A stretch of 64,000 nucleotides of DNA from Phycisphaerales bacterium (GCA_020348265.1 CP070744.1:4993559-5057558), one strand, 5' to 3'; positions 1 through 24,294 are shown, counted from the first letter of the stretch. Notes: generated by a model not told the origin, from the sequence alone. A program made the numbers and translations.

Positions 1-276
<276 letters not shown>

Positions 277-563
277 TCGCTTGAGGAGTATACGGACGAG
301 TCCTTCAACAACAGGTAGTCGGCGGCCGGACGACATCGGGCCGGCCGACACCGTCCTCGGGTTCTCCTGAGTTCAATCGCGGGTATCCAGCGTTGGGCGG
401 CTCAGGTGAACAAGCGAAAGTGAACCCGGATTGGGTTCTCACATTCGGTCATCCCGGTCGCCTCGTTGCATGTATCCGGGAAAGTGCTACGCTTAGACGA
501 CAGTAACCCGGCTGCGGAGCCGGGCATGCTTTCATTTATCGTGGGTATTGAGACTCAGCTGCC

Positions 564-1643
564 ATGAACGGACAACGAATGCTTTGGGCGACGTGTGTCG
601 TCCTGCCTCTTTTGGTCACAGGTTGTCAGACAACTCAGTCGCGCTCTTTGCAGCCCCTGGTGCAGTTTGACACGAATCTCGGCAAGATCACTCTTGAGCT
701 GGACGGCGAGCAGGCTCCCCGCGCCGTACTGAATTTCGTCGAGTATGTCGAGGACGGGTTCTACGATGGAACGGTCTTCCATCGCGTCCTGCAGGACTCG
801 CTGGTTCAAGGCGGTGGTTATACGCCGGATCTGGAGAAGAAGACTCAGAAACTGCGAGAGGGAATCCGGCGGGACCCCGACAACGGCCTGAGAAACACGC
901 GAGGCGCCATCGCTATGGTCCACGCGCCGGGCCGGACTGTGCCCATCCAGTCAGAGTTCTTCTTGAATGTCAGCGACAATCCGAGCCTCGACCAATGGCA
1001 GGGCGACAGTCCGGGATACACGGTTTTTGGGAAGGTCGTCGAAGGCATGGAGACGGTGGATCGGATAGGCGGGACGCCTCTGGGGCCTCATACGAACTAC
1101 GCTGGTGGACAACTGCCCGTCGTGCCGGTTGATGCCGTGGTGATCAGGAGCGCCAGGATGATGACCGCGTACAATCCGCGTGATCTCCGAGCGGTGATAG
1201 ACGCGGCTGAGGCTGAAGCACAACGCTTGCTCCGAGAGGCTGAAGAAGCCAGAGAGAGGGCTTTTCGCCAGAAAATAGAAGAGGTAGAAGCAGAGTATGG
1301 GAAGCTGACGACAACCGAGTCCGGGCTTCAGTATGTGGATATGCGCGTCGGAATCGGGCCCATGCCGTTGCCTGAAGATGCGGTGAGATTTCACTACCGG
1401 GCGACGTATTCTGACGGCACGGAGATCGCCGATTCGTGGCAGAGTGAGCCAAGGTCAAACCCTGTCAGCCGAATGCTGCCAGGCGTTCGGGAGGGGGTCC
1501 TGTCGATGAAGGAGGGTGGAAAGCGTTTTATGGTTATCCCCCCGGAGCTTGGCTACGGAAGTGAAGGCGTGAAGGGCAGGATTCGAGGCGGCGCTACCCT
1601 CCTCTTTGAAATCGAGCTGCTGGCTATAGAGGAGGCTGAGTAG
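564..1643 (+). CDS. dual-domain PPIase lipoprotein: N-terminal cyclophilin-type domain fused to C-terminal FKBP-type domain
   Basis: Lipoprotein signal (LLVTGCQ). Cyclophilin motifs: FHRVLQDSLVQGGG, TVFGKVVEGMETVDRI. The C-terminus (GLQYVDMRVGIGP...RFHYRATYSDGTEIADSW...LGYGSEGVKGRIRGGATLLFEIELLAI) is a typical FKBP fold. Confidence 0.85.
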   Translation: MNGQRMLWATCVVLPLLVTGCQTTQSRSLQPLVQFDTNLGKITLELDGEQAPRAVLNFVEYVEDGFYDGTVFHRVLQDSLVQGGGYTPDLEKKTQKLREGIRRDPDNGLRNTRGAIAMVHAPGRTVPIQSEFFLNVSDNPSLDQWQGDSPGYTVFGKVVEGMETVDRIGGTPLGPHTNYAGGQLPVVPVDAVVIRSARMMTAYNPRDLRAVIDAAEAEAQRLLREAEEARERAFRQKIEEVEAEYGKLTTTESGLQYVDMRVGIGPMPLPEDAVRFHYRATYSDGTEIADSWQSEPRSNPVSRMLPGVREGVLSMKEGGKRFMVIPPELGYGSEGVKGRIRGGATLLFEIELLAIEEAE

Positions 1644-1685
1644 TCCCCGTTAGCTACTGATGTCCAGTCCATTGACCACGCTACG

Positions 1686-2150
1686 GTGGCAGCACAGTCA
1701 AGCCGCCCCGCTGAATTGCGTATGTCCACGGAATCCCCTCATCCACTGAGCGATCGAGACGAAACGCCTCCGACTATGCCCCAGGCCGGGAATCGCGTAC
1801 GCCTGGCTCGCAAGTTTACGTTCGAGGCAGGACACCGGCTTCCCCACGCTCCGCCGGATCACAAGTGCCGGGGAATTCACGGGCACAGTTTCACGGTTGA
1901 AATCGTCTGCGAAGGGGAGATCGACCCGCAGTCCGGCTGGTTGATCGATTTTGCGGACATCAAACACGCATTTGCCCCGCTCCTTGCTAGACTCGATCAC
2001 CGCATGCTCAACGATATTGAGGGCCTCGAGAATCCCACGGTTGAGAACCTCGCCCGATGGATCTGGATCCGCCTGAAACCCCAACTACACGTGCTTGCGC
2101 AGGTCAACGTGTATGAAACCCACGCAGCTCGCTGCGAGTACAGGGGGTAG
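1686..2150 (+). CDS. queD: 6-carboxy-5,6,7,8-tetrahydropterin synthase (QueD / PTPS family)
   Basis: C-x3-HGH motif (HKCRGIHGHSF) and FTFEAGHRLP; overall PTPS-like. The real start may be the internal Met near nt 1722. Confidence 0.8.
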   Translation: MAAQSSRPAELRMSTESPHPLSDRDETPPTMPQAGNRVRLARKFTFEAGHRLPHAPPDHKCRGIHGHSFTVEIVCEGEIDPQSGWLIDFADIKHAFAPLLARLDHRMLNDIEGLENPTVENLARWIWIRLKPQLHVLAQVNVYETHAARCEYRG

Positions 2151-2300: not shown

Positions 2301-5300
2301 CTACGGATAGACAAACGCCGTCTCGAACACCACATAACCCACCTGCTCGGTTGTGTGGTTGCGCTCGATGTCGCCGATTTGGTCCTCATCGATCACGACA
2401 TCCAGCGTTGTTGCTGTGGTCGGGTTTGCACCGTAGGTGTAGGACCAACCACCGTTTCCGCCGTCGACACCGGCCAGAGTGGTTACCGCCATCGTCGGTA
2501 CCGAAGCAAACGCTGTGTTGAACGTGTAGGTGAACGGTGGACCGTTGGTGATGCCACGCACGGTATCCGCACCTACCAGAGCCTCGAAGGCAACTCCGCC
2601 TATCGTGCCGTGACCGGCCTCGAAGACGATGAAGCCCACCGTCTCATCGGCCCGTGTCGTGTTCGTGTCCTCGGCTACCTCCTTACCCGTCTTCAATGCG
2701 CTAGCCGACGGCGGATTGGTCCGGAAAGTGCCCTGACACCAGAAGACAGACCAGAGCGGATCGTTCTCACTCATCACCTGGCCGATCACAACAGGGTTGG
2801 TGTAGGTGTTGCCGTACGTCTGGGTCTCACCCACCCAGCTGTTGTTCTCGTCCGTGACGGTCGAGAGATAAGTCTGGGCCTCGATGTCGACACCATCGAT
2901 CGTCCAGGCGCCTTCTTCGACCACCAAACAGCTGACATCCTCGGCCGCGACTGCACCACCTGACGGATTCTGCAGGCGGATGTCAAAGCTCGTGGACGTC
3001 ACGCTGCTGATGCGAGTTACCACTGGCGTGGTGTTGTTGGCGTACTCCGCCGAGCAAACCACAACCGGATTGACGTACGTGTTGGTCAGGTTTACCGTCA
3101 CGTAGCTAGCGCCCACGCTTACCGTGCCACCTTCCATCTGGGCAACAGGTCCGGTGAGACACTCGTCGTTCACTTCATCGCAGCCCTGTCCCGGACAGGG
3201 ATCGCTGCCCGCCTGGCAGAAGCCACCGACGCAAGTCTCCGCTCCGTTGCAGAAGAGCCCGTCGTCGCACTCGGGATTCGTCTCACAGTCATAGCAGCTG
3301 TCGCCGCCCTCGTCGCAGTACTGGCCCGGACACGGATCGCTACCGCCCTGGCAGTCCAGGGTGGCGTTGCAGACCTCCGCACCATCACAGAACGCGCCGT
3401 TATCGCAGTATGCGTCATTGGGCACGTTATCGCACGAGTCGGTGCCTTCGTTGCACGAGTCATCCGTGCATCCGACGCCGTCGTTGCAGTCAACGGTTGT
3501 ACCGGCCTGGCAGCCGAGCACCTCATCGCAGGTCTCGGCGCCGTCGCAGTACGCTCCATTGTCACAGTTGGCATTATCGGGCACATTGTCGCAGGAATCC
3601 GTGCCTTCATTGCAGGAATCGTCCGTGCAGGCAACGCCGTCGCCGCAATCAACGGCGGTTCCATCGACGCAGCTGCCGCTCACGCAGTCTTCGACACCGT
3701 TGCAGTACAGCCCGTCATCACAATCAGCCGGGACGCCGCATTCCGGCCCGGCCGATGCGGTCATGGCAACGTCATCGACGCAGATGTCGCTGGTATAGCT
3801 GGTACCGGTGACACCCCGGAAGCGTATCTTGATCAGCGTGCCGTCATAGGCGCTCAGATCCACGGCGGCCTGGTACCAGGTATCGCCCTGGTTTCCGGAC
3901 AGGCTCCACACTTCCGCCCAGTCAACGCAGTCCTCGGACACCTCCACATACAGAGTGCCCATAGCTGCACCGTACATGTGGTACCAGAAGGTCATCTCCG
4001 CGGCACTGGCTCCGGTGAAGTCGAAGCACGGTCCCTCGATGATGCCGGTCACGTTGGGATAGTTCGGGCTGGACGCTTCGGTGTACACGTAGTACGTACC
4101 GCCGTGAGCCCCGGACGGCCCCGTGCTGCTTGATGAAGTCGAACCGGTGTTTCGCGTCCAGTCCATTGCATCACCGCCGACGTTGACCCAATCTCCCCAT
4201 CCGCTTTCGTATCCTTCCGAATACGGGAAGGAGGAGATTTGGGTGGCGCAATCGTTGTAGCAGACACCGCTGACGCAAGTGTCGACCGTGCAGTCGTTTC
4301 CGTCATCGCACTGCCCGTTTTCGGTGCAGGGTATACAGACATCGCTCGCCTCATCGCAGCCCTGCATCGGGCAGGGATACGTGCCCGGCTGGCAGAATCC
4401 GCCGGCGCAGGTCTCCGCTCCGTTGCAGAAGAGGCCATCGTCGCACTCAGGATCGCCGCCGCAGGTAACCGCCGGCGTGATGGTCAGCGAGAGATCGTCA
4501 ATGGTCATATCACTGGTATAGCTGCTGCCCGTTACACCCCGCCAGCGCATCTTGACCTTCTGGAGCGCATATGCCGACAGATCGACGCTGGCCTGATACC
4601 AGGAGTTACCCTGATTCCCGGATAGACTCCACACCGTATCCCAGGTGACGCAGTCCTCGGATACCTCAAGGTTGAGCGTACCCATGGCGGTTCCGTACAT
4701 GTGGTACCAGAAGGTCAGGTCCGCGTCACTAGCTCCGGTGAAGTCGAAGCACGGGCCTTCGAGGATTGCCGTTTTACTGGGATAGTTGGGGCTGGAAGCC
4801 TCCGTGTAAACGTACCAGGTCCCACCATGAGCGGCCGATGGCCCTGTGCTGCTCGATGGAGTCCCGCCACTGTCGCGGGTCCAATCCATGTCATCGCCGC
4901 CGACATTGCCCCAATCACCCCAGCCACTCTCGAATCCTTCGGTGTAGGGGAACGTTGATACTTCAGTCGAGCAATCGTTGTAGCAGACGCCGTCTATGCA
5001 GTCGTCGACCGTGCAATCACTGCTATCGTCGCAATCTGCGGGTACGGCGCACTCTGCGGCCTCGCACTGGTCTGTAGTCTCGTTGCAGTACTGCGGGGCG
5101 CAGGGATCACCGCTTGATACGCAGTCCGAAACGGGATCACAACTTTCCGTGCCGTTGCAGAACAGCCCGTCGTCCGGGCAGTTGGTGTCGTTGGCTACGT
5201 TGTCACACGAGTCCGTTCCTTCGTTGCAGGAATCGTCCGTGCACCCCACGCCGTCGCTGCAATCGATGGCCGTTCCGGACCGGCAATCGAGCGTGGCATG

Positions 5301-8300
5301 GCAAATCTCTGTACCGTCGCAGTAAAGGCCGTTGTCGCAATTGGCATCGTTGGCGATGTTGTCGCACGAGTCCGTGCCCTCGTTGCAGGAATCGTCCGTG
5401 CACCCCACGGCGTCATTACAGTCGACGGCCGAGCCGGACTGGCAATCCAACGTTGTGTGGCAGGTCTCGGCTCCATCGCAGTACAGGCCGTTATCGCAGT
5501 TGGCGTTGTTGGCGATATTGTCACACGAATCCGTGCCTTCATTGCAGGAATCGTCCGTGCAGCCAACGCCGTCATTGCAGTCTACAGCCGTGCCAGCCTG
5601 GCAGGTCCCGCCCACGCATGTCTCTGCGCCATTGCAATACACGCCGTCATCGCAATCGGGATCGCCTCCACAGTCGTAGCAGAAATCGCCGCCCTCGTCA
5701 CAAAGTTGACCCGGACATGGATCGCTGCCCGCCCGGCAATCCAGCGTGGCGTGACAGGTCTCCGTCCCATCGCAGAACAGGCCATTATCGCAGTTGCCGT
5801 CGTCGGCGATGTTGTCGCAAGAATCCGTGCCTTCGTTGCACGAGTCGTTGGTGCAACCCACGCCATCATTGCAGTCGACGGTGGTTCCGGCTTGGCAGTC
5901 GGAGGTCGCATGGCACCATTCTGCACCATCGCAATACAGACCATTGTCACAGTTGGCATCGTTAGTGAGGTTATCACACGAGTCCGTACCTTCGTTGCAG
6001 GAGTCATCCGTGCAGCCCACACCGTCATTGCAGTCAACAGCCGTGCCGGACTGGCAATCCAACGTGGCATGGCAAGTCTCCGCGCCGTCGCAGTAGAGAC
6101 CATTATCGCAGTTGGCATCGTTGGCGACGTTGTCACACGAGTCCGTGCCTTCATTGCAGGAGTCGTCCGTGCATCCCACGCCGTCGTTGCAGTTGACGCT
6201 CGTTCCCGACTGGCAATCCAACGTAGCATGGCATGTTTCCGCGCCATCGCAGTAGAGGCCGTTATCGCAGTTGGCATCGATGGCGATGTTGTCGCAGGAA
6301 TCGGTGCCCTCGTTGCAGGAGTCATCCGTGCATCCTACGGCGTCGTTGCAGTCGACAGCCGTGCCGCTTTGGCAGTCACCGTACGCATCGCAGGTTTCCA
6401 CGCCGTTGCAGTAGGCCCCATCTGAGCAGGCGGCATCGTTGGTGCACTCGCACGCGGGGCAGGGTCCGCCACAGTCGATGCGATCCTCTCCCTGGTTCTG
6501 AATCCCGTCGCTGCAAGTCGCGGTGCCAGTGTTACGGCCCCAGATCTGCACGTCATCAATATTCCAGCCGCAGAACTGCCAGGAAGTGTCAGTCGTACCC
6601 ATGGTCCATCGGAGGTAGACGGTGGGTTGATTGTCCGCAATCGCGGAGATGTCGAACTCCTGGAGGGTCCAGGCGGTGTCAGCCACCTGGGCGCTGTTCT
6701 GCCATACCGTCGTCCAAGTGCTACCGTTGTTGCTCACCCTGAAATAAGCATGGTCGTAGGTGTTGACCTCGACGCCGAGCCAGCGCTGAAAGGTCACACT
6801 CACTTCCACCAGATCGGTGCAGTCAATTGCGGTCGTGGTCAAATGTGTCTCGGGAAGGCTGTTTTCATAGTCTCCGCTGAGGTTATAGCCGTACACGTTC
6901 GTGCCGGTGTATCCACTGGTCGGATCAGGCCCGCCATACTGTCCGCCACCGCCGGTCGGCTGCCCCCATGCCCAGAGCCCCTCGACCGACCACCCCGGAT
7001 TCGTGTTCATGGTCCATTCATACTGAACCGTTGGGGCCTCGACGCATTGGTCGTTCACTTCGTCACAGGACTGCCCCGGACAAGGATCGCTGCCCGCCTG
7101 ACAGGATTGCGACACGCAAGTCTCCGCACCATTGCAGAAGAGGCCGTCGTCGCAATCGGGATCGCCGGTGCAGGGAGCGAGCAAGTTCAACGTGTTGATC
7201 ACGTCGATGCGACCATACCCGTAGGCGCGGTCGAACCCGGCCGGGCCCATGTCGATGGCCCCGTCGCGGATGATCTGGCGTACCTCAGCGGGTGTAAGCG
7301 TCGGATCCACGTCCAAGACCAAGGCGACGAGACCGGCTACGGTGGGGCAGGACATGCTTGTGCCGCTCATACCCGTGATCGAGGCACCACCAGCAGCCGT
7401 GCTCGCGGACCAGATGTTCGCACCCGGGGCGGTCACGTCGAGATAGTCACTCTCGTTGCTGAAGCAGCCGACATCGTCCGTCTGAGGGGCATAGTCGGTG
7501 CAGATTCCCCAGTTCCAGTTTGTGGTGGGGTCTTCGCAAGTCGGATAGTCGTTCTTCCAGGTCATTCCCACGGCGATGACATCGACACCGCAGGCCGGCG
7601 AACCCATAGCGTTGCTGTAGTTCTCATTGCCGGAGGCGGCCACAGCCACGACGCCGTTAGCTACGGCATTATTCGCCGCGACAGCCCAGCTGTGTGTACA
7701 CGGCCCGCTGTAGTTCCCGGTGCCAATACTCATGCTGATAACGTCAGCCTGTGCACCGGATGCCGACTGGTCTGCGCAGTAGTCAATACCCGCGATGATG
7801 TCGCTGTCATAACCGCCGCCGGCAAAGTTCAGGACCTTGCACCCGATCAGTGTCGCTTCCGGAGCCACACCCTGGAATGGCATCGATCCTGTGCCGCAGG
7901 GGTCCCAGCTTATTCCGGTTCCACCGAGGGCAATGCCGGAACAGTGTGATCCGTGGCCGTTGTCGTCTTCAGGGTTGTTGTCATCGTTATAGAAGTCGTA
8001 CCCTTTCGACGTATCGATTCGATCAGAGTACATCACGTGATCCGAGTCGATCCCGGTGTCGACGACGCAGATGCGCACGCCGGCTCCGTCCGCGGACAAG
8101 CCCGCTCCAGTTATCTGACTCTGCAGGCCGCGAATCAAGGGAATGCTGTCGTGGAGTTTGAGGACGTTGGGATGATATTCATCCTTCTCGACTTTCACTA
8201 CACCTGGCATGTTCCTCAGTGCGTCAACCTGATCTTCCGGAATATCCCGCAGGTTGAGTACGTTGGGCATGGTGTCCCCGTACTCGTAATGCACTTTTCC

Positions 8301-8618
8301 TTTGTTTAGCGCGGCGAAGCTCCGGACATCTGCACGCTCGACCGCGTTGCGCGTGAACATCGGTTCCATGTAAACCAGCACGCTGACCAAGCCCGCTTTG
8401 GCTCGCGGACCGTCCATCGACATGGCATCTGCCGATTCCACAGCGCTAGGAACCGACATATCGGGGAGCGGAGTGTCATAATATGCTTCGTCAACCTGCA
8501 GGTTTATGGTCCCGGTATCGGAGCCTCCTGCTGACCAGTCCACACCGGTACCCAAGGCCAACACGGCGACCATAGCTGGCAGCCAGGTACATCTTTTTTG
8601 TTGAAGCACCCGTCTCAT
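2301..8618 (-). CDS. giant secreted multidomain subtilisin-like serine peptidase (S8) with I9-like propeptide, three MAM-like beta-sandwich domains, nine 53-aa Cys-rich repeat modules and an unassigned C-terminal domain
   Basis: Signal peptide MRRVLQQKRCTWLPAMVAVLALG (preferred start at 8618; the track ORF extends to 8705). Catalytic triad motifs VVDTGID, GHGSHCSG, GTSMSCP. MAM-like segments (FPYTEGFESGWGDW...). Repeated DCNDGVGCTDDSCNEGTDSCDN.ANDANCDNGLYCDGAETCHATLDCQSGTAV modules. Confidence 0.85.
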   Translation of the reverse strand: MRRVLQQKRCTWLPAMVAVLALGTGVDWSAGGSDTGTINLQVDEAYYDTPLPDMSVPSAVESADAMSMDGPRAKAGLVSVLVYMEPMFTRNAVERADVRSFAALNKGKVHYEYGDTMPNVLNLRDIPEDQVDALRNMPGVVKVEKDEYHPNVLKLHDSIPLIRGLQSQITGAGLSADGAGVRICVVDTGIDSDHVMYSDRIDTSKGYDFYNDDNNPEDDNGHGSHCSGIALGGTGISWDPCGTGSMPFQGVAPEATLIGCKVLNFAGGGYDSDIIAGIDYCADQSASGAQADVISMSIGTGNYSGPCTHSWAVAANNAVANGVVAVAASGNENYSNAMGSPACGVDVIAVGMTWKNDYPTCEDPTTNWNWGICTDYAPQTDDVGCFSNESDYLDVTAPGANIWSASTAAGGASITGMSGTSMSCPTVAGLVALVLDVDPTLTPAEVRQIIRDGAIDMGPAGFDRAYGYGRIDVINTLNLLAPCTGDPDCDDGLFCNGAETCVSQSCQAGSDPCPGQSCDEVNDQCVEAPTVQYEWTMNTNPGWSVEGLWAWGQPTGGGGQYGGPDPTSGYTGTNVYGYNLSGDYENSLPETHLTTTAIDCTDLVEVSVTFQRWLGVEVNTYDHAYFRVSNNGSTWTTVWQNSAQVADTAWTLQEFDISAIADNQPTVYLRWTMGTTDTSWQFCGWNIDDVQIWGRNTGTATCSDGIQNQGEDRIDCGGPCPACECTNDAACSDGAYCNGVETCDAYGDCQSGTAVDCNDAVGCTDDSCNEGTDSCDNIAIDANCDNGLYCDGAETCHATLDCQSGTSVNCNDGVGCTDDSCNEGTDSCDNVANDANCDNGLYCDGAETCHATLDCQSGTAVDCNDGVGCTDDSCNEGTDSCDNLTNDANCDNGLYCDGAEWCHATSDCQAGTTVDCNDGVGCTNDSCNEGTDSCDNIADDGNCDNGLFCDGTETCHATLDCRAGSDPCPGQLCDEGGDFCYDCGGDPDCDDGVYCNGAETCVGGTCQAGTAVDCNDGVGCTDDSCNEGTDSCDNIANNANCDNGLYCDGAETCHTTLDCQSGSAVDCNDAVGCTDDSCNEGTDSCDNIANDANCDNGLYCDGTEICHATLDCRSGTAIDCSDGVGCTDDSCNEGTDSCDNVANDTNCPDDGLFCNGTESCDPVSDCVSSGDPCAPQYCNETTDQCEAAECAVPADCDDSSDCTVDDCIDGVCYNDCSTEVSTFPYTEGFESGWGDWGNVGGDDMDWTRDSGGTPSSSTGPSAAHGGTWYVYTEASSPNYPSKTAILEGPCFDFTGASDADLTFWYHMYGTAMGTLNLEVSEDCVTWDTVWSLSGNQGNSWYQASVDLSAYALQKVKMRWRGVTGSSYTSDMTIDDLSLTITPAVTCGGDPECDDGLFCNGAETCAGGFCQPGTYPCPMQGCDEASDVCIPCTENGQCDDGNDCTVDTCVSGVCYNDCATQISSFPYSEGYESGWGDWVNVGGDAMDWTRNTGSTSSSSTGPSGAHGGTYYVYTEASSPNYPNVTGIIEGPCFDFTGASAAEMTFWYHMYGAAMGTLYVEVSEDCVDWAEVWSLSGNQGDTWYQAAVDLSAYDGTLIKIRFRGVTGTSYTSDICVDDVAMTASAGPECGVPADCDDGLYCNGVEDCVSGSCVDGTAVDCGDGVACTDDSCNEGTDSCDNVPDNANCDNGAYCDGAETCDEVLGCQAGTTVDCNDGVGCTDDSCNEGTDSCDNVPNDAYCDNGAFCDGAEVCNATLDCQGGSDPCPGQYCDEGGDSCYDCETNPECDDGLFCNGAETCVGGFCQAGSDPCPGQGCDEVNDECLTGPVAQMEGGTVSVGASYVTVNLTNTYVNPVVVCSAEYANNTTPVVTRISSVTSTSFDIRLQNPSGGAVAAEDVSCLVVEEGAWTIDGVDIEAQTYLSTVTDENNSWVGETQTYGNTYTNPVVIGQVMSENDPLWSVFWCQGTFRTNPPSASALKTGKEVAEDTNTTRADETVGFIVFEAGHGTIGGVAFEALVGADTVRGITNGPPFTYTFNTAFASVPTMAVTTLAGVDGGNGGWSYTYGANPTTATTLDVVIDEDQIGDIERNHTTEQVGYVVFETAFVYP
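3380..3700. repeat. tandem coding repeat block 2: two further copies of the same ~159-bp Cys-rich module unit
   Basis: The same DNA motif recurs at about 3430 and 3590; the protein shows DCGDGVACTDDSCNEGTDSCDN... and DCNDGVGCTDDSCNEGTDSCDN... Confidence 0.6.
5140..6430. repeat. tandem coding repeat block 1: about seven copies of a ~159-bp unit (one copy carries a 135-bp insert) inside the giant peptidase gene
   Basis: Near-identical DNA strings recur at ~155-160 bp spacing, e.g. gtcacacga(g/a)tccgtgccttc(g/a)ttgcagga(g/a)tcgtccgtgca at about 5205, 5365, 5520, 5815, 5980, 6135 and 6290. Coordinates are approximate. Confidence 0.7.
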
Positions 8619-8883
8619 GATCTGTTCACTCCAAAAATGTAGACCTATAGCCGTGGCCGAGCCGAGCATTGGCCGATATGAAAACCTGGCCCAGCCACCC
8701 TCCATTCAACCTTGCGTTCTCGATAGAAGAAGCATGACGCACGCAGTACAGACCGCCCCCGTACTTTGGCGTTGAAACACACCAACCGCGCTTGCCGATG
8801 CACAGCCATAGCTGGTGCGCGAATGAAGTGCCGGCAACAACGCAGCCCACACAGCGCATCCCGAGGGAGCGGTATAGTCCGCT

Positions 8884-8960: not shown

Positions 8961-10160
8961 TTACGCAATGACGCCTGCGCGTCTGAGTTCCCCAATCTCA
9001 CGCTGTGAGAACCCTGCATCTTCCAGCACACGATCGGTATCGCGCCCATAGGTCGGGGCAAAGGGAAGCGTGCGCTTGCGGGCGGTCAGGTACGCCTGCT
9101 CAACGGCTGGCGGCGGAAGACGCACAGTCTGTCCGGAGGGGGTTTCCGTTCTCAAAAGCCGTTCTTTAATCGGCGGGAATTCCACAACCTGTGGAATCGT
9201 GTGAATCGGAGCGGCAACGAGCCCTTTGCTCGAAAACAGCTCAACAAGCTCAGCGGTGCTGAATCGGTTCGTGATCGAGCCTATCTCCACGTGAATCGCT
9301 TCTCTCTCTTTACGGCGTCCCTCGTTGGTGTCGCGCGTAGGTGATACCAGCGCGCTGAACTCTTCCATTGACGTCAAGCGAGCCCATTGTCCGTCGTTGC
9401 CAATCGCAAGATAGACGTAGCCGTCCGCGGACGGATAGACGTTTACGGGGATGAACTCGCGGTGCTCGTTTCCGCTTCGCCTCACCTCTTCTTGTGTATA
9501 TCCGAGGTCGAGCAGCGGAATGGTGGTCACCAGCCAGGAGGCGGCTGCTTGGGCCATGGAAACATCGATTCGCGAGCCTTCCCCCGTTTGTGTCTTCTTC
9601 GCCAGGGCAAGACACACATTCGCATAGACTTCGTCGCCGGCCTTCAGGTCAACGAAGGGCACGCCGCAAAGCGTGGGTGGGCCCTTGGGATCGCCGGTGA
9701 CCTCCATAAAGCCCGTCATGGCCTGGATTGCGGGGTCGTAACCTGGAGCGTCGGGATAATCCGGCCCCATCGCGGACAGTCCTGCCCAGATCAACCCGGG
9801 GTTGAGTGAGCTGAGTGTTTCGTAATCGATTCCCAGCTCCTTGTAGCGTTTGGGGAGCGTGTTGCTGGCGAACACATCCACCGGCAACTCAGTGATCAGC
9901 CGCTTGAGCGTTTCCCGGCCGGCCTCGTTTTTGAGGTTCAGGCTGATGGTTTCCTTGCCCACGTTTGGCCCAACGAAGTAGGCATGCAAGTCGGGACGTT
10001 CGCCCTCTTTGCCTACATAACGGTTGGGATCGCCCGGAAGCCGATCGCCGGAGGGCGTCGCTTCGATACGAATCACTCGCCAGCCCAGTTGTACGAAACG
10101 CTGGGTTGCGTGACAAAGGGAAAGTGCCTGCTCGAGGGAAAGTACGGTTAGCTTTTCGAT
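8961..10160 (-). CDS. CoA-transferase family III (CaiB/BaiF-like); N-terminus extends beyond the track ORF (8961-10076) and probably starts at a non-canonical ATC codon
   Basis: Family III hallmarks: VIRIEATPSGDRLPGD (cf. VIKVE.P.GD..R) and the internal LNPGLIWAGLSAMGP. In-frame upstream translation IEKLTVLSLEQALSLCHATQRFVQLGWR aligns with the conserved N-terminal [27 protein letters not shown] segment. It contains no ATG/GTG/TTG before a TAA. GGAG lies 8 nt upstream of ATC (10160-10158). Confidence 0.7.
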   Translation of the reverse strand: MEKLTVLSLEQALSLCHATQRFVQLGWRVIRIEATPSGDRLPGDPNRYVGKEGERPDLHAYFVGPNVGKETISLNLKNEAGRETLKRLITELPVDVFASNTLPKRYKELGIDYETLSSLNPGLIWAGLSAMGPDYPDAPGYDPAIQAMTGFMEVTGDPKGPPTLCGVPFVDLKAGDEVYANVCLALAKKTQTGEGSRIDVSMAQAAASWLVTTIPLLDLGYTQEEVRRSGNEHREFIPVNVYPSADGYVYLAIGNDGQWARLTSMEEFSALVSPTRDTNEGRRKEREAIHVEIGSITNRFSTAELVELFSSKGLVAAPIHTIPQVVEFPPIKERLLRTETPSGQTVRLPPPAVEQAYLTARKRTLPFAPTYGRDTDRVLEDAGFSQREIGELRRAGVIA

Positions 10161-10211
10161 GACTTGGGCTCCGTTAACAGATTATCACCCGATTGCGAGG
10201 AGCAGGCGTTC

Positions 10212-12632
10212 TCATTCGGCCGGCCGGCTGGCCGCTTTCAGGTGCGCCAATACCTTCTCCGGGGTGAGAGGCAACTCTCTGATGCGTACGCCAGCGGCGT
10301 TGTACACTGCGTTGGCTACCGCTGCCGCCACGGGGATCAGGGGCGACTCGCCGACCCCCTTTGCTCCGTATGGGCCTGCGGGATCATTCGTCTCGACGAA
10401 GGAGAGCTCCATCTCGGGCACATCCCACGTGGTCATTAGCTTGTAGTCGGTGAAAGAGGGATTGAGCACTCGTCCCTCGGACACCTTGACCTCTTCGGAC
10501 AGGCAGTATCCAAGACCCTGCACAATGCCACCCTCGATCTGACCTTCGAGTCCGAGGCGGTTGATCACCCTGCCTACATCATGGGTCGCGCACACCTTGA
10601 TCACCTTGACTACACCGGTGTCGAGGTCGACCTCCACCTCGGCGACATGGGTTCCGAAAGCGTAGCAGGCGGAGATGTCGCCCATTTGGTCCTCATCGGG
10701 CGCCGTACTCGGCGGCTCGTAGAAATCCGTGGTCATGATCAGCTCGTTCTTGCTGCCGAAGTGCAGGCCACGAATGATCTTGCCTATCGATTCGAGAGCT
10801 TCGCCGGTGGCGCCATCAACTACCTTTCCCTCGGAAAGGTCAAGCTGATCAGGTTCACGTTTCAAGCGGGCCGCAGCTGCTGCGAGGAGTTTACGTCTTG
10901 CCTCGCGCGCAGCTCTTAGAACGGAGTTGCCTGCTATAAACGTAGTTCTGCTGGCATGTACACCCACGTCCCACGGGGTCAGCTCCGTGTCATTGTTAAT
11001 TACGCGGATGTTCTTCATTGGGAGGCCTAACCCCTCGGCGACAATCTGGGCGAGGACCGTCTCGGAGCCCTGGCCGATCTCGGATGACCCGGTAAGAACC
11101 GTCACCGCGCCGAAGTCGTCGAGCTTCAGAATCGTGCCGCACCCGTCAGAGCGGTATATCTTGGCTCCGCCCCCGACGTGGAAGAAGGAAGCCATGCCCA
11201 CACCTCGCACCATGCTTCGACAATGAGAACAGGCGATGCCCGCTTGTTCCTTTGTCCGCTCCCTCACGGTCGCGGCTCGGTTTGGCGTTTCGGTTTGTTG
11301 ATTTCTCGATGCTTCGGCTTCTCTACGTTTGGTCTCCCAGCCGGCGTTGGCGGCCGATGTTTCGAGGCATTCCTTAAGCCCGCAAGTGCGCAGCACCATC
11401 CCTTGCCCGGTGGTTTCACCAGGCTTTTGGGCGTTTATGAGTCGAACGTCGAGGGGATCCATTCCCAGCTCATCCGCCAATTGATCGATCTGAGACTCGA
11501 GGGCGAAGGTAGCCTGCGGATTTCCGTAGCCCCTAAACGCGCACGCGTAAATGTTGTTTGTGTAGATTATGTCCGCGTGTTGGCGGACATGAGGCACGCG
11601 ATAGAGCGAGGAGAAGCTGCGCATCATGATCCAGGGAGTGGTTGCCCCCCAGGAAGTGCGCCCACCGTTGTCCAGGGTCATGCGCACATCACGGAAGGTA
11701 AACGTGCCGTCTTTCCGGGCACCGCTTCGCATGTATATAACAGCATTCTGGCGCGTCGGTGTGGCCAGGAACTCCTCTTCGCGGGTGAAGACGAGCTTCA
11801 CGGGCCGTGACGTCTTCATGGCCAGAAATATACAAATGGGCTCAAAGGGATGGATGTCCAGTTTGCTACCGAAGCCCCCGCCGATTGGTGGTTGGATGAT
11901 CCGGATTTTCTCCGGGGCTACCCCTACGATGCGCGCCAAATCGTTCTTGTACAGAAAAGGGACCTGGGTCAGAGAGTGTAGAGTCAATCTCCCGTCGGCA
12001 TCGAAGCTGGCGATGATTCCTGATGTACCCAGGCAACAGTGGGCCTGGCGTTGGAGCGTGTAGGTATCCTCGACGATGATGTGGGAATCTCCGACTCCTG
12101 CTTCTATGTCTCCATGCGAGTAGTCGTAGCGGAAGGGCGTGTTATCCGCGATTTTTTCATGGATGATCGGAGCGCCATCGGCAACGGCCTCTTCAGGCGA
12201 TGCAACCACCGGCAGATCTTCGTAGGTCACTCGAATGCGTTTGACGGCCTCCGCCGCTATCTCGGGTGTGTCAGCCGCCACCGCCGCCACCTCGTCGCGG
12301 ATGCACGTTACCTTGTCCGCTTTGAGGGCGGTGTTGTCTTGCCCGTATCCGAAAGGTACGAGGTTGATGTCCGCAGCGGTGATTACCGCCCGGACTCCTC
12401 GCATGGCCCTGGCAGCGGACGTATCGATACTGACGATGCGGGCATGAGGTCGATCGGCAAAGAGGATCTTCCCATAGAGCATGCGCGGGAAGTTGAGATC
12501 TTCGATGTAACGGGCGAGCCCTGTGGCTTTCTCAGGGGCGTCGAGCTTGGGGATTCGCCGTCCGATGAGAGTATCTTTCTTGGTCCTTCGTTTCGGGGTT
12601 GCTACGCTCGCGGCCTCAAACATCGTCAGCAC
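10212..12632 (-). CDS. xanthine dehydrogenase/aldehyde oxidase/CO-dehydrogenase-family molybdopterin-binding large subunit (CoxL-like)
   Basis: 806 aa. N-terminal a/b-hammerhead region (RIPKLDAPEKATGLARYIEDL), the IYACAFRGYGNPQ active-site loop, and a Mo-binding large-subunit architecture. Confidence 0.9.
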   Translation of the reverse strand: MLTMFEAASVATPKRRTKKDTLIGRRIPKLDAPEKATGLARYIEDLNFPRMLYGKILFADRPHARIVSIDTSAARAMRGVRAVITAADINLVPFGYGQDNTALKADKVTCIRDEVAAVAADTPEIAAEAVKRIRVTYEDLPVVASPEEAVADGAPIIHEKIADNTPFRYDYSHGDIEAGVGDSHIIVEDTYTLQRQAHCCLGTSGIIASFDADGRLTLHSLTQVPFLYKNDLARIVGVAPEKIRIIQPPIGGGFGSKLDIHPFEPICIFLAMKTSRPVKLVFTREEEFLATPTRQNAVIYMRSGARKDGTFTFRDVRMTLDNGGRTSWGATTPWIMMRSFSSLYRVPHVRQHADIIYTNNIYACAFRGYGNPQATFALESQIDQLADELGMDPLDVRLINAQKPGETTGQGMVLRTCGLKECLETSAANAGWETKRREAEASRNQQTETPNRAATVRERTKEQAGIACSHCRSMVRGVGMASFFHVGGGAKIYRSDGCGTILKLDDFGAVTVLTGSSEIGQGSETVLAQIVAEGLGLPMKNIRVINNDTELTPWDVGVHASRTTFIAGNSVLRAAREARRKLLAAAAARLKREPDQLDLSEGKVVDGATGEALESIGKIIRGLHFGSKNELIMTTDFYEPPSTAPDEDQMGDISACYAFGTHVAEVEVDLDTGVVKVIKVCATHDVGRVINRLGLEGQIEGGIVQGLGYCLSEEVKVSEGRVLNPSFTDYKLMTTWDVPEMELSFVETNDPAGPYGAKGVGESPLIPVAAAVANAVYNAAGVRIRELPLTPEKVLAHLKAASRPAE

Positions 12633-13107
12633 CTCTTACGGCCAGCGACAGGATGGCCTCGATGATCTTCTGATAGCCCGTACAACGGCAGAGATTGCCC
12701 TCCAGGCCGCGTTTGACTTCGTCCTCCGTTGGAGCGGGGTTTGACTCCAGCAACGCATAGGCAGCCATGATCATGCCCGGCGTGCAAAAGCCGCATTGTA
12801 CCGCACCGTAATCCACGAACGCCTTCTGGATCGGGTGGAGCTGTCCGTTGCTTTCCAACCCTTCGATGGTCAGGACTTTTGATCCTTCACATTCGACAGC
12901 CAACACCAGGCATGAGTTGACCACCCTACCATCGAGCAGCACGGAACACGCCCCACATTCGCCCTCGCCACAGCCGTACTTAGTGCCGGTGAGCTCGAGC
13001 CCGTTGCGGAGGACGTCCAGCAAGGTGGCCGTCGAGGGAGCCATAATGGTGACGGACTCGCCGTTGACGACCATGCCAATCTGGATTCGATCAAGAACTT
13101 GCGGCAC
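12616..13107 (-). CDS. [2Fe-2S]-binding small subunit of the molybdenum hydroxylase (CoxS-like)
   Basis: GCGEGECGACSV..., CGFCTPGMIM and NLCRCTGYQKI cysteine motifs; 163 aa. Confidence 0.9.
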   Translation of the reverse strand: MPQVLDRIQIGMVVNGESVTIMAPSTATLLDVLRNGLELTGTKYGCGEGECGACSVLLDGRVVNSCLVLAVECEGSKVLTIEGLESNGQLHPIQKAFVDYGAVQCGFCTPGMIMAAYALLESNPAPTEDEVKRGLEGNLCRCTGYQKIIEAILSLAVRGADDV

Positions 13108-13951
13108 GCTGCAATATCCTCCTCAACATCGCCGCTACGACATCGCGGCGGTACGCTTGAGAAGCTCGCACATCCGTGATTGGCTTGATCTCCTCACGAG
13201 CGGCGTTCTCACATCTGTTGATGACTTCCGGTGAGAGCGCCATGCCAAGCAACTCTGCTTCCGCGGCTTTTCCACGCAAGGGAACAGGTGCGACGGAGCC
13301 GTATCCCACGCGAGCCCGCGAAATCACGCCGCCCCCCAACTCAACCGCCACGCCAACAGATGCGACGGCAATCTCCATCGCAGGGCGCGTGCCGAACTTG
13401 TCCCAAGCGGAGAACGCGCCTTGAGGCACCGGTTTGAAGCGCAGATGAGTCACGATTTCTCCCGGTGCGACAACCGTGGCGCCGGGGCCTTTGAAGAACT
13501 CTTCAATGGGTACGGTACGGATGGTCGCACCGCTATCAGTATGCGTGGCAACCTCCACTTCCGCGTCGAGCAGTAGGAGGGGGATCGCGCTGTCTGCCGC
13601 CGGTGAGGCGTTACACAGGTTTCCGCCAATGCTAGCCCGATTCCGAATCTGCGGGCAGGCGACGCGCCCCACAGCCTCTGCCAAGATCGGTGCGGCGGCC
13701 CGGATCAGAGGGTCCGCCTCAATCTCGCTCATCGACGTACACGCCCCGATGCGGATATCGCCATTTGCGCGCGATACGCCCTTGAGGTCTTCGATGTGCT
13801 TCAAATCAACGATGGACGCGGGTCGGTCCTGCACACCCGCCGACCAACGTGGAAGCAGGTCCGTCCCACCCGCGAGGGGCGAAACGGGCCAGGCAGATCG
13901 CCCGATCAGCGACAGTGCCTCCTCGATTGTTTTGGGGCGATGATAGATCAA
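13091..13951 (-). CDS. FAD-binding medium subunit of the molybdenum hydroxylase (CoxM-like)
   Basis: MIYHRPKTIEEALSLI N-terminus, AGGTDLLP motif, 286 aa. Gene order M-S-L with 4-nt overlaps. Confidence 0.85.
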   Translation of the reverse strand: MIYHRPKTIEEALSLIGRSAWPVSPLAGGTDLLPRWSAGVQDRPASIVDLKHIEDLKGVSRANGDIRIGACTSMSEIEADPLIRAAAPILAEAVGRVACPQIRNRASIGGNLCNASPAADSAIPLLLLDAEVEVATHTDSGATIRTVPIEEFFKGPGATVVAPGEIVTHLRFKPVPQGAFSAWDKFGTRPAMEIAVASVGVAVELGGGVISRARVGYGSVAPVPLRGKAAEAELLGMALSPEVINRCENAAREEIKPITDVRASQAYRRDVVAAMLRRILQRAASS

Positions 13952-14340
13952 CCCGGAGCCAATCTATGCGGCCCGCTTGTCGAACATCTCGACTTCAGGG
14001 CCGTTCAAACCTCATGCGACCGTACCCACGCAGCCAAGCCGACTTTAATAATGCAGACCCGAACACGCCGCAAGCTCCGCATCTCCGCAACCTGACCAGA
14101 CTCGTTCTGTGACTTCCCTTGCGAGTCAATCTGCACTTAACCTTGAGCATTCGTGGTCAAGCAGTCTGATGTTGATTGGAAGGGATGGGAGGCAGCAGCC
14201 GGATACTCCGCAGGGTGTTTCAAAGGTCGACTTGCTGACGTACGATACCGCGTGCCGTGGATCATCACGAATGCTGACCCTGAGGGGTTCTCCGGGAAGA
14301 TGATTCGGCATTTTTCGTGCTCTGTAGCTTGTTGAGGAAC

Positions 14341-14405
14341 GTAGCGCCACCCCTTGTGGGTGGCGCCGTGCGGCGGTTCTCGCCGCCCACAGGGGGTGGC
14401 GCTAC
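14341..14405. repeat. palindromic repeat element, copy A (inverted arms GTAGCGCCACCCCTTGTGGGTGGCGCC / GCCGCCCACAGGGGGTGGCGCTAC)
   Basis: Left arm 14341-14367, right arm 14382-14405, spacer ~14 nt. Each arm is itself internally palindromic. The element ends 20 nt before the iorA start codon. Confidence 0.6.
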
Positions 14406-14425
14406 ACTTGGGTCGCCGGAACGGG

Positions 14426-16351
14426 ATGCGCGAGGAGGCGACGTTCGTGAGTGCTGCCCCGACCCATGAGATCCTGCAGGACAGCCCCGGCACCCGTTTA
14501 TGTCTATTGGGAAATGTGGCGATTGCCCGCGGGGCGCTTGAGGCAGGTGTCCAGTTCTTTTCCTGCTATCCGGGTACACCTTCCTCGGAGGTCGGCGACA
14601 CGTTTGCCCGCATCGCCGAGGAAGCCGGGGTCAAGTTCGAGTACTCCGTCAACGAGAAAATAGCCGTCGAGGTGGCCTTTGCCGCTTGTCTGACCGGGGC
14701 GCGCTCCATGTGCAGCATGAAGCACCTGGGTCTGAACTACGCTAACGACCCCATCTCCACCATGCCCTATGTCGGCGTGGAAGGAGGTATGGTTATCGTG
14801 TCGGCAGGCGACCCCTCAGCCATCACCAGCCCCAACGAGCAGGATCAGCGTCACTTCTGCAAGTTTCTTTACTATCCGGTGTTTGATCCAGGCACCCCGG
14901 ACGACGCCCTGCGCACGACCCGCTATGCGTTTGCATTCTCTGAACAAACGCGTCTGCCGGTTATCATACGCCCGACTACGCGCGTTTGTCATAGCAGCGG
15001 AATGGTCACGCTGGGCAAGCTACCCGGCGGGCGCAATGAGATACACTTCGACAAGGATCCATCCCGTTACGTGCCTATCCCGATCAATGCTCGACGCATG
15101 CGCAAAGAGCTGACCGAGAGGTTTGAGCTGGCATCGACCTTGTTGCGGGAGTCTGATTTCTACCCTCGAAGAGGTGAGGGGCGCCACGGTATCATGGCCA
15201 GTGGCGTCAGTTATGCTTACGCCTCTCAGATTCTCGATGACTTGGGACTATGGGATCAGGTTACTCTTCAGCAGATTGGGGCATATCCGATTCCCGAGTC
15301 GATACTCCGTGATTTCCTAGGTGCTGTTGACTCTGTTCTTCTTGTCGAGGAGCTCACCCCATATATGGAGGATTGGGTCGCCGAGGCGGCAAGTCGTGCT
15401 GCACAGCAAGTTCCTCTGTTCGGCAAGCGCACGGGACATTTTCCCATGGAGTTCGAGTATTCCCCTGATCTGGTCGAAGATGCTGTTCGACAGTATCTGG
15501 GGATGACATCACGTTCTTCACTGTCCGTGGATGTCCCCGAGCTTCCGGAACTTCCTCCGCGCCCGCCGGTGCTCTGCCCTGGGTGTCCGCACCGTGCTGC
15601 TTACTATCTTGTAAGGAAGGTATTCGGGAAAAACACAACATACTGTAATGACATTGGCTGCTATACGCTTGGATACGGCGAACCGCTCAATGTCTGTGAC
15701 GTCCTGTTGTGTATGGGAGCTTCCATCACACAGGCATCCGGAATCGCTCGAATGACGGGAAAGCGGACGGTGGCGTGCCTGGGTGATTCGACGTTCTTCC
15801 ATAGCGGGCTGCCTGCCCTTGCCAATGCACTGCAGGCTCGCGATGACGTAACGGTTATCATATTGGATAATTTCATAACGGCAATGACAGGGTTTCAGCC
15901 GAGTCTGACGAGCAATCGAGGGGATCGTGGCTCCGCTGGGCGACACGGTCCGTCGGTGTCCGGCATATCCAAGATGCGCTTTTCCATTGAGGGCGTAGTG
16001 CGCGGCCTCGGTGTCCAGGATATCTATTCTGTAGACCCCTACGACGAAGCGGCTATGACCGAAGCGCTCAAGCAAGCCAAGAGCGCAGAAGGTGTGAACG
16101 TACTCGTTTGCCATTCACCCTGCATGGTTAATGAAAGACGATTAGGTCATCACCAAGAACGCGTGCCTCTGAGAATCAATGTGGACAAGTGCAACGGCTG
16201 CTCATTGTGCGTGCGATTGCTGGGTTGTCCCGGGATCCTGGTGAGTGGCGGTCACTATATGATAGATGACGAGCTTTGTGTTGGCTGCGGCCTTTGTGCC
16301 AATGTGTGTAAACATGATGCCGTTGAGCCGATTGCGGTTGAGAAGATTTGA
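14426..16351 (+). CDS. iorA: indolepyruvate:ferredoxin oxidoreductase alpha subunit (IorA; TPP-binding, with C-terminal 2x[4Fe-4S] domain)
   Basis: CPGCPHRAAYY, GDSTFFHSG (TPP), CNGCSLCVRLLGCPGI and CVGCGLCANVC ferredoxin motifs. The track ORF start at 14354 reads through the repeat element; the Met at 14426 is preferred. Confidence 0.9.
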   Translation: MREEATFVSAAPTHEILQDSPGTRLCLLGNVAIARGALEAGVQFFSCYPGTPSSEVGDTFARIAEEAGVKFEYSVNEKIAVEVAFAACLTGARSMCSMKHLGLNYANDPISTMPYVGVEGGMVIVSAGDPSAITSPNEQDQRHFCKFLYYPVFDPGTPDDALRTTRYAFAFSEQTRLPVIIRPTTRVCHSSGMVTLGKLPGGRNEIHFDKDPSRYVPIPINARRMRKELTERFELASTLLRESDFYPRRGEGRHGIMASGVSYAYASQILDDLGLWDQVTLQQIGAYPIPESILRDFLGAVDSVLLVEELTPYMEDWVAEAASRAAQQVPLFGKRTGHFPMEFEYSPDLVEDAVRQYLGMTSRSSLSVDVPELPELPPRPPVLCPGCPHRAAYYLVRKVFGKNTTYCNDIGCYTLGYGEPLNVCDVLLCMGASITQASGIARMTGKRTVACLGDSTFFHSGLPALANALQARDDVTVIILDNFITAMTGFQPSLTSNRGDRGSAGRHGPSVSGISKMRFSIEGVVRGLGVQDIYSVDPYDEAAMTEALKQAKSAEGVNVLVCHSPCMVNERRLGHHQERVPLRINVDKCNGCSLCVRLLGCPGILVSGGHYMIDDELCVGCGLCANVCKHDAVEPIAVEKI

Positions 16352-17020
16352 ATGAGTTCACCAAAGTGTGAGTCTGACGCGAAGGGCTGGCGCATTTTGA
16401 TTGCTGGCACCGGTGGTCAGGGAGCGTTGACGGCCGCCCGCGTGTTATGTGGCGTGTTTGTACGGCGCGGGCATGATGTGGTGAGCGGCCAGTTGCACGG
16501 TATGGCTCAGCGGGGAGGAAGTGTGCAGTCGTCCGTGTTGATCGACACCGGGATCAGCCCGGTCATTGGAGCTGGTCAAGCCGACTGCGTGTTGGGTTTT
16601 GAGCCGGTTGAGACGGCACGTGCCCTTTCGTTGATGTCGAAGAACACCACAGTATACATGAACACGTGCGCGGTAGTTCCGTTTGTCGTCGGGCAGCAGT
16701 TGGCGCTAACGAGGGCGGGGGCCGGCTATCCAGCAGTGAAGGATCTCATAGACTGCCTGAAGAAGGTCGCGCAGCGAGTATTCTCATTTGATGCAATGCA
16801 GCGTGCCTTCGACGCTGGATCGCCCAAGGCGCTCAACATGGTTATGTTGGGGTGTCTGTTGGGGTCTGAAGCGCTGCCATGTACAGCAGATGAGTTTTGG
16901 ACCACGACGCTCAAGACCATGCCGTCGAAACTTAAACAGATCAATACTGCTGCGTTCTTTGCCGGCGTTGAATGGGCAAGGGAAGTAGGAAACGCTGCGG
17001 TGGAGGCAAGCGGATCATGA
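16352..17020 (+). CDS. iorB: indolepyruvate:ferredoxin oxidoreductase beta subunit (IorB)
   Basis: ILIAGTGGQGALTAARVL N-terminus, ~220 aa, immediately downstream of iorA (stop/start abut). Confidence 0.85.
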   Translation: MSSPKCESDAKGWRILIAGTGGQGALTAARVLCGVFVRRGHDVVSGQLHGMAQRGGSVQSSVLIDTGISPVIGAGQADCVLGFEPVETARALSLMSKNTTVYMNTCAVVPFVVGQQLALTRAGAGYPAVKDLIDCLKKVAQRVFSFDAMQRAFDAGSPKALNMVMLGCLLGSEALPCTADEFWTTTLKTMPSKLKQINTAAFFAGVEWAREVGNAAVEASGS

Positions 17021-20864: not shown

Positions 20865-20912
20865 TACGTAGCCAGAGGCACTTTGGGTTGCTGTCCAGGT
20901 GAGGATAGGTAA

Positions 20913-22043: not shown

Positions 22044-22087
22044 GCCCTTACAGTGCGTCCGGGGTGTGCAAACAAGGAGGCAAGGTG

Positions 22088-22486
22088 ATGTCGCGAGAAA
22101 AGAGGGTGCGGGTACTTGTTGCAAAACCCGGATTAGATGGGCATGACGTAGGGGCTAAGGCCGTCGCCCGCACCTTGATGGATGCCGGCTTCGAAGTTGT
22201 CTATACCGGACTGAAAAAGTCCCCCGAGGAAATAGTTCTGCGGGCACGCGAAGAGAAGGTGGATGTACTTGGCCTGTCTATACTATCCGGCTCACACATT
22301 CCCATCTGCCAACAGATAAAGAACCTGCTGGATAAACACGAGGTGCCTCCTTTGCTATGGATCGTAGGTGGCAACATTCCACTCCAGGATCACGATGAAC
22401 TCAGGCGGATTGGAGTCGATGGCGTCTTCGCAGTTGGATCGTCTCTTCAGGAAATCATCGACTTCATCAACGAGAGAATATCATGA
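22088..22486 (+). CDS. B12-binding subunit of a methylmalonyl-CoA-mutase-family acyl-CoA mutase (small subunit)
   Basis: RVLVAKPGLDGHDVGAKAVARTLMDAGFEVVYTG (the DxHxxG cobalamin-binding motif). The track ORF is over-extended upstream to 21878. Confidence 0.8.
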   Translation: MSREKRVRVLVAKPGLDGHDVGAKAVARTLMDAGFEVVYTGLKKSPEEIVLRAREEKVDVLGLSILSGSHIPICQQIKNLLDKHEVPPLLWIVGGNIPLQDHDELRRIGVDGVFAVGSSLQEIIDFINERIS

Positions 22487-24093: not shown

Positions 24094-24169
24094 TCGGCTG
24101 CCTCTCATCTGCGAAGAAGACGCCGTGCCATTTAGCAGCTTGTTGAACAAGTTGCTTGTTGTGATCCAA

Positions 24170-24237: not shown

Positions 24238-24294
24238 TTATTCAACAGGCTGTCAGACCACGACGGCACACTCAACAAGGACAAGGATAAGGGA

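Follow-up and report, generated by a model that had tools for sequence, protein, structure and literature searches.

What use does a bacterium make of a secreted protease that carries a very long non-catalytic extension? The question is raised by a gene on the minus strand of a 64,000-nucleotide (nt) stretch of DNA from an uncultured Phycisphaerales bacterium (GCA_020348265.1 CP070744.1:4993559-5057558; the whole stretch is called the window below), which encodes a multi-domain subtilase of the S8 family. Members of the Phycisphaerae are abundant but for the most part uncultured; they degrade organic matter in the sea and in sediments, and their large secreted enzymes probably help to set which polymers can be attacked. 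We analysed the gene, the domains of its product and the distribution of these domains among relatives. The reading that we favour, with reasonable but far from complete confidence, is that the secreted protease is directed to glycans or glycoproteins, its cysteine-rich rods serving as rigid, proteolysis-resistant spacers. The features on which this reading is built are located in Table 1.

The open reading frame (ORF) list of the window contains an uninterrupted minus-strand ORF from 2301 to 8705 (2,134 amino acids, aa). Within it, the ATG at 8618 is preceded by GGAG 10 nt upstream, and translation from this codon matches exactly the NCBI protein UCE59670.1, whose record is entitled "MAG: S8 family serine peptidase [Phycisphaerales bacterium]" (MAG, metagenome-assembled genome) and which sits on a 5,666,113-bp contig. 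An original prediction, made from the sequence alone, had described a secreted multi-domain S8 subtilase of ~2,100 aa, and the ORF is indeed real, with 2,105 aa. The same prediction had raised the concern of a chimeric misassembly. The gene does contain long, nearly repetitive DNA with a 159-nt period, which is error-prone for assemblers, yet a chimeric ORF, or one in which repeats were collapsed or expanded, is barely credible here. At the DNA level, identity between repeat copies is no more than 55-86 %, and the copies use the same codon at just 56 % of the residues that are identical between them, which argues for an old module array constrained at the protein level and not for an assembly artefact. 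Moreover, misassembly is excluded because the identical protein is carried by the 5.67 Mb contig and because collinear homologues, built on the shared unit grammar described below, are found in independent assemblies (e.g. P0005, 1,904 aa, in which the domain order is kept).

The protease itself is of an ordinary kind, already annotated automatically as an S8 peptidase. As had been proposed, its S8 domain (Pfam, E=3.4e-48) possesses the D/H/S motifs, and D187, H222, N331 and S421 are all intact, in the standard order VVD187TG, H222GSH, SGN331 (with the oxyanion Asn) and GTS421M. The closest solved relative of the domain is Tk-SP (PDB 3afg/9ues, E~1e-27). A Sec signal peptide is probable at the N-terminus, as judged from its sequence, and canonical N-terminal signal peptides are present in the homologues P0003, P0010 and P0012. 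The I9-like propeptide of the original prediction stands less firmly, as Inhibitor_I9 matches this protein at E=0.03-0.04 with 15 bits against a cut-off of 21.2, i.e. below threshold; at E<=1, this model is matched by 6 of the 14 family members considered (best E=0.0077).

At the other end of the chain, the C-terminal domain, described earlier as ~300 aa of unknown type, measures ~283 aa and indeed has no Pfam model. Structure prediction, which had been named as a check for this domain and for a repeat module, gave confident AlphaFold2 models for both it and a cysteine-rich cassette, with a predicted local distance difference test (pLDDT) of 97.4 for the C-terminal domain. This model is all-beta and has the beta-sandwich fold of H-lectins, and structural comparison places it closest to H-type lectins and to the receptor-binding domains of phages and pyocins. 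The thirds of the domain are connected to each other by hhalign (R1-R2 85 %, R2-R3 63 %). The Pfam H_lectin model (PF09458) reaches 17.4 bits on this protein (gathering score 24) and is matched at E<=0.1 by 38 of the 64 members of the C-terminal-domain family, with a best E of 6e-6. From the AlphaFold2 model, the comparison of the thirds and the H_lectin matches within the family, the most suitable reading of the domain is that of three H-lectin-like sandwiches in one chain, which would pack in a pseudo-trimeric manner. H-type lectins are homotrimers that bind N-acetylgalactosamine at the protomer interfaces (PMC6048534).

A search with the C-terminal domain retrieved 229 proteins, at 50-80 % identity and nearly all devoid of Pfam annotation, from Planctomycetota, Desulfobacterales, Verrucomicrobiota, Sumerlaeia, Actinomycetia and one MMETSP eukaryote transcript (P0178). 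Such identity across phyla suggests either horizontal spread or a very constrained ligand. In other proteins the domain is joined to fn3, PKD, cadherin-like and CBM6/35 domains, fusion partners that are typical of a mobile extracellular binding module. The relatives concerned are P0121-P0240.

Two of the three MAM-like domains that had been proposed in the central part of the protein are supported by Pfam: MAM (PF00629) scores 142.7 bits, above its gathering score, with stretches at aa ~1229-1379 and ~1470-1620. The second of them (MAM2) also exceeds the cut-off of choice_anch_J (aa 1469-1618, 43.8 bits against 30), and the closest solved match is the MAM domain of MDGA1 (5oj2), which corresponds to aa 1483-1620. 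The remaining domain, MAM0 (aa 527-700), in contrast, was without a match in the Pfam scan, and its score with the NCBIfam model choice_anch_J stayed under the cut-off (E=1.5e-4, 22 bits against 30). Its family is nevertheless connected to that of MAM1 and MAM2 by hhalign with a probability of 96 % (E=4.3e-9), over the C-terminal 99 columns only.

The modules that gave the protein its repetitive appearance are 53 aa long. Nine of them had been announced and nine starts were mapped (aa 757, 810, 863, 916, 1014, 1067, 1120, 1658 and 1711), Tandem Repeats Finder (TRF) reporting a 159-nt periodicity with scores of 559-833. Two details had to be revised: a module contains 8 Cys instead of 6, and the seven modules thought to form an uninterrupted tandem are indeed seven but are arranged as 4 + 3, split by ~45 aa comprising one cap and one start unit. 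Each module is composed of two unlike units, A (C-x-D-G-x2-C-T-D-D-S-C-N-E-G-T-D-S-C) and B (C-D-[ND]-G-x2-C-[ND]-G-x-E-x-C-x5-C), while every cassette ends with a cap unit, C (DPCPGQxCDExxDxC). That A and B might be diverged copies of a single unit was considered and rejected (hhalign probability 0.1 %). The same grammar, B(AB)nC, is strictly followed in 60 homologues, where the types BC (47 occurrences), BABABC (33), BABABABC (22) and BABC (8) were encountered and 264 of the 280 AB modules are exactly 53 aa long. Every cassette of the present protein has a number of Cys that is a multiple of 8, which fits a predicted complete internal disulfide pairing. No further cassette-bearing ORF was found in the 64-kb window. 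A separate four-cysteine motif located directly after MAM0 lies outside this grammar; it is kept in the homologue P0003 and matched no Pfam or NCBIfam family.

Cysteine makes up 7.5 % of the whole protein (158 residues). The rods at aa 725-1185 hold no Lys and two Arg in 461 aa, for a net charge of -99. The whole protein is very acidic as well (337 Asp+Glu versus 51 Lys+Arg, net charge -286), which could be due to life in a saline environment, to the binding of cations or to protection against proteolysis.

To which known family could these cassettes belong? The original prediction had likened the 53-aa modules to the Myxococcales-type cysteine-rich repeats (DUF4215, PF13948, or myxo_disulf_rpt, TIGR02232). 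There is a superficial likeness, both being Asp/Gly-rich Cys repeats, and DUF4215 repeats occur together with B/C units in the relative P0060. However, PF13948 and TIGR02232 gave no match even at E<=10, on the whole protein or on isolated Cys-rich pieces, and PF13948 matched none of 32 cassettes (0/32). In P0060, used as a positive control, the DUF4215 model matches just that protein's own CGDG..EECDDGN repeat (aa 377-410) and skips the adjoining B/C run. At the level of membership by hidden Markov model, this assignment is already refuted, and we attach only a very remote likelihood to it.

Two other resemblances are to be regarded as leads, not as memberships. The first concerns the A unit: Dicty_CTDC (PF00526) finds its best match in the protein at aa 1437-1457, in an A' unit (14.8 bits against 27, E=0.026), is matched by 6 of the 32 cassettes (best E=3.9e-4), and sees its threshold passed by relatives and by members of the cassette family (e.g. 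P0244, 38.5 bits). The second concerns the B unit and scytovirin, a 95-aa high-mannose lectin with five disulfides, among which the Cys20-Cys32 bond (PMC3407925). Scytovirin is the sole PDB sequence match of the cassette profile, at a non-significant E of 0.2, and the motif CxxxxxCDGAxTCxxxxxCQGT aligns to it with all four Cys in register. Pfam SVN (PF20888), matched by 6 of the 32 cassettes (best E=0.0082), is joint top family among them and reaches 11.9 bits here (cut-off 27); moreover, the B profile and a scytovirin fragment are connected by hhalign with a probability of 78 % and 40 % identity. The B units, e.g. CDNGLYCDGAETCHATLDC, present the four-Cys core C-x5-C-x5-C-x5-C, as in scytovirin. 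Structural comparison was based on cassette 5, of type B(AB)2C, modelled by AlphaFold2 with the 32 aligned cassettes (pLDDT 94.0, predicted template modelling score 0.64). The model is a run of short beta-hairpins, one per unit, for which Foldseek returned nothing from the PDB at E<=0.001; its top match, non-significant, is the Cys-rich Entamoeba Gal/GalNAc lectin heavy chain (E=0.011).

Taken at face value, these matches would make the cassettes binding elements in their own right, that is a multivalent carbohydrate-binding array with scytovirin-like knots as B units, the protease being borne by a long polyvalent lectin. Such an array is consistent with the register of the four Cys, the rank of SVN among the cassettes, the hhalign result and the Entamoeba lectin retrieved by Foldseek, and scytovirin itself is a lectin for high-mannose glycans that is rich in disulfides (PMC3407925). 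None of these matches reaches significance, however, whether PDB-wide (E=0.2), in Pfam (11.9 against 27 bits) or by Foldseek (E>=0.011), and it is the disulfide core of scytovirin that they cover, whereas its sugar-contacting aromatics are not demonstrably included. We hold a lectin array to be unlikely, and retain the cassettes as spacers.

Under the preferred reading of a targeted protease with rigid spacers, the protein would be exported by the Sec pathway, after which the I9-like propeptide would assist folding and would be removed following autoprocessing. The active catalytic domain, with D187/H222/N331/S421, would remain joined to a tail of ~1,600 aa. Four beta-sandwich modules of this tail, i.e. 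one distant and two canonical MAM domains and the triple H-type-lectin-like module, would bind ligands. They would be held apart by six disulfide-rich, extremely acidic B(AB)nC cassettes, each predicted to form a stack of hairpins; by oxidative folding, these would become stiff spacers resistant to attack by their own enzyme. Docking on glycans or glycoproteins of particles, algal or microbial surfaces or exopolymer could then be ensured by the lectin-like and MAM modules, and would concentrate proteolysis on the bound substrate.

Several points weigh against this proposal. The similarities of this protein to I9, H_lectin, Dicty_CTDC and scytovirin are all below curated thresholds. A sugar ligand is not assured either, because CofB has the H-type-lectin fold repurposed for a peptide, which is bound at the same site (PMC6048534). 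Finally, no membrane or cell-wall anchor motif was found in the protein, so that the surface location assumed in the original prediction is unproven.

As the protein lacks a classical anchor, the one visible way for it to be attached is retention by a lectin, and one may ask whether attachment is the main role. The protein would then be mainly an adhesin or aggregation factor, its lectin-like C-terminal domain holding glycans of the cell's own envelope and its S8 domain serving only for self-maturation or shedding. About three quarters of the chain is non-catalytic binding or spacer sequence, and both the C-terminal domain and the cassettes occur also in protease-free proteins. Yet ~35 close homologues keep the entire S8 domain with its catalytic residues, which argues for selection on proteolysis, and nothing in the analysis points to binding of the cell's own surface. 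An adhesin appears quite improbable to us.

A search for orthologues had been suggested as a check at the outset, and the ~35 close homologues answer it. They are 1,200-2,300 aa long, 50-70 % identical and mostly found in MAGs of Phycisphaerae and other Planctomycetota. They share the order S8, MAM, cassettes and C-terminal domain, with a varying number of cassettes. P0010 and P0012 have two C-terminal domains each. In another relative, P0035 (1,900 aa), the place of the S8 domain is taken by a metalloprotease-like N-terminal region with HEWGHG, to which cassettes of the same kind and two C-terminal domains are attached. As cassettes and C-terminal domains are there borne by another protease-like N-terminus, the tail acts as a portable targeting device.

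Among 1.84 billion cluster representatives, 12,703 were matched by the cassette profile at E<=1e-3, and at E<=1e-30 there were still 2,177. The cassette-bearing clusters come mostly from Phycisphaerae MAGs, and Phycisphaerae also account for most of the stretches, at least 520, detected in species-representative genomes. Other hosts, all MAGs, belong to Acidobacteriota, Gemmatimonadota, Myxococcota, Binatia, Thermodesulfobacteriota, Woesearchaeota and Promethearchaeota. Cassette stretches were also seen in MAGs labelled Methanococcoides, Promethearchaeota and Woesearchaeota (loci L034, L045, L054 and L060); these archaeal loci could reflect real transfer or binning contamination. The architecture had been called unusual, which holds in a relative sense only given the ~35 close homologues and the thousands of protein clusters with a cassette. 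In the literature, we found no paper on this architecture or on the cassette, only general papers on H-lectins and scytovirin.

If both accessory modules were binders, a bolder scheme could be drawn. The B(AB)nC unit would be a disulfide rod of start, alternation and cap whose scytovirin-type B units bind glycans as polyvalent lectin arrays, the C-terminal domain a single-chain pseudo-trimeric H-type lectin, and the whole a portable glycan-harpoon with which uncultured Phycisphaerae equip various hydrolases. We mention this combination as a speculation and find it doubtful.

Table 1. Position of the features of the S8 peptidase gene in the window (nt, counted from its first letter) and in the protein (aa)
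Feature	Position (nt)	Position (aa)	Strand	Basis or remark
Coding sequence, complete	2301..8618		-	2,105 aa + stop; ATG at 8618; pre-pro S8 peptidase with ~1,600-aa non-catalytic extension
Sec signal peptide, probable	8547..8618	1 to ~24	-	MRRVLQQKR, hydrophobic core LPAMVAVLALG, then TG; read from sequence
Propeptide region, I9-like	8109..8546	25 to ~170	-	Inhibitor_I9 below threshold
Peptidase_S8 catalytic domain	7212..8087	178-469	-	Pfam PF00082, E=3.4e-48, 164.9 bits against gathering 21.8
Cys cassette 1, type BC	7044..7172	483-525	-	8 Cys; regex segmentation and Cys positions
MAM0, distant MAM / choice-of-anchor-J-like beta-sandwich	6519..7040	527-700	-	Profile-profile link to MAM
Separate 4-Cys motif CSDGIQNQGEDRIDCGGPCPAC	6450..6515	702-723	-	Directly after MAM0; seen in sequence
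Cys cassette 2, type B(AB)4C	5679..6446	725-980	-	40 Cys; modules 1-4; TRF 159 nt, 4.3 copies
Cys cassette 3, type B(AB)3C	5064..5672	983-1185	-	32 Cys; modules 5-7; TRF 159 nt, 2.6 copies
A'-type unit CDDSSDCTVDDCIDGVCYNDC	4971..5051	1190-1216	-	6 Cys; adjoins MAM1 start
MAM domain 1	4464..4970	1217-1385	-	Pfam MAM E=1.2e-41, best stretch aa 1229-1379
Cys cassette 4, type BC, + A' unit	4248..4463	1386-1428 (BC), 1431-1457 (A')	-	
MAM domain 2	3741..4247	1458-1626	-	Second stretch of Pfam MAM match
Cys cassette 5, type B(AB)2C	3294..3740	1627-1775	-	24 Cys; modules 8-9; segment modelled by AlphaFold
Cys cassette 6, type BC	3159..3287	1778-1820	-	8 Cys
C-terminal domain, three tandem H-type-lectin-like beta-sandwiches	2304..3152	1823-2105	-	~283 aa; AlphaFold2 model

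The gene stands alone, as its neighbours in the window (a cyclophilin-FKBP peptidyl-prolyl isomerase, PTPS, a CoA-transferase and a molybdo-dehydrogenase) are of the housekeeping kind, unrelated to the protease, and do not recur around relatives. Among the window neighbours, none was found again around P0005 or P0003 except for a PTPS-family gene ~5 kb from P0003, and the neighbourhoods of P0005 and P0003 have nothing in common with each other. The terminator scan of the downstream region detected a single weak site 3' of the gene, on the opposite strand. Elsewhere in the window, a single 359-aa ORF (564-1643, plus strand) joins cyclophilin-type and FKBP-type peptidyl-prolyl isomerase domains. 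From 8961 to 25791 extends a catabolic run with a family III CoA-transferase, the molybdopterin and FAD (flavin adenine dinucleotide) subunits of a xanthine-dehydrogenase-family enzyme, a TPP (thiamine pyrophosphate)/ferredoxin oxidoreductase, hydantoinase/oxoprolinase A and B, an acyl-CoA dehydrogenase and a methylmalonyl-CoA mutase; it may be a degradation cluster unrelated to the protease.

What the locus offers is thus a standard subtilase lengthened by binding modules that are spaced with disulfide rods. The protein belongs to a family of some size that automatic annotation has already reached, and in which only the accessory modules are without curated descriptions. These modules, i.e. 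the B(AB)nC cassette and the ~283-aa triple H-lectin-like domain, are widespread and not yet included in curated libraries. Defining both would improve the annotation of thousands of metagenomic proteins and might provide new stable lectin or spacer scaffolds. The value of the finding is moderate and lies in domain annotation, and it will come as no surprise to specialists.

Among known systems, the closest for the enzyme are the multi-domain bacterial and archaeal subtilases of MEROPS S8A, such as Tk-SP of Thermococcus kodakarensis, with which it has in common the S8 fold, the D-H-N-S residues in standard order, the presence of C-terminal non-catalytic beta-sandwich extensions and probably the logic of an N-terminal propeptide. 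It differs from them by an extension five times as long as the catalytic domain, in which MAM domains are combined with the triple H-lectin-like module and with B(AB)nC disulfide rods, as well as by a Cys-containing insertion in the catalytic domain (aa ~352-390), between the Asn and Ser motifs. With respect to the MAM (PF00629) and choice-of-anchor J (NF038128) families, two domains here exceed the Pfam and NCBIfam thresholds, whereas the first copy (aa 527-700) has diverged to the point where its probable connection shows up in profile-profile comparison alone; these bacterial MAM domains are joined to a subtilase, and not to a metalloprotease (meprin, InhA) or a receptor. The A unit bears the signature of the Dictyostelium CTDC repeat, C-x-D-G-x2-C-T-x-D-x-C-x6-C, but here A alternates strictly with B, and no homology of B to A was detected. 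In the case of scytovirin (PF20888; PDB 2qsk/2jmv), which is a high-mannose lectin from cyanobacteria, the features shared with the B unit are the Cys spacing and a CDGAxTC...CQ.GT motif; the match is below significance, and the unit is placed here inside long rods instead of a 95-aa two-domain lectin. Finally, H-type lectins such as Helix pomatia agglutinin, discoidin I and SLL-2 are homotrimers, whereas three diverged copies stand here in one chain of ~283 aa, a composite domain for which Pfam offers no model in spite of its 50-80 % identity between phyla; the H-lectin-like receptor-binding tips of phage tailspikes, R-pyocin fibres and CofB are related known systems.

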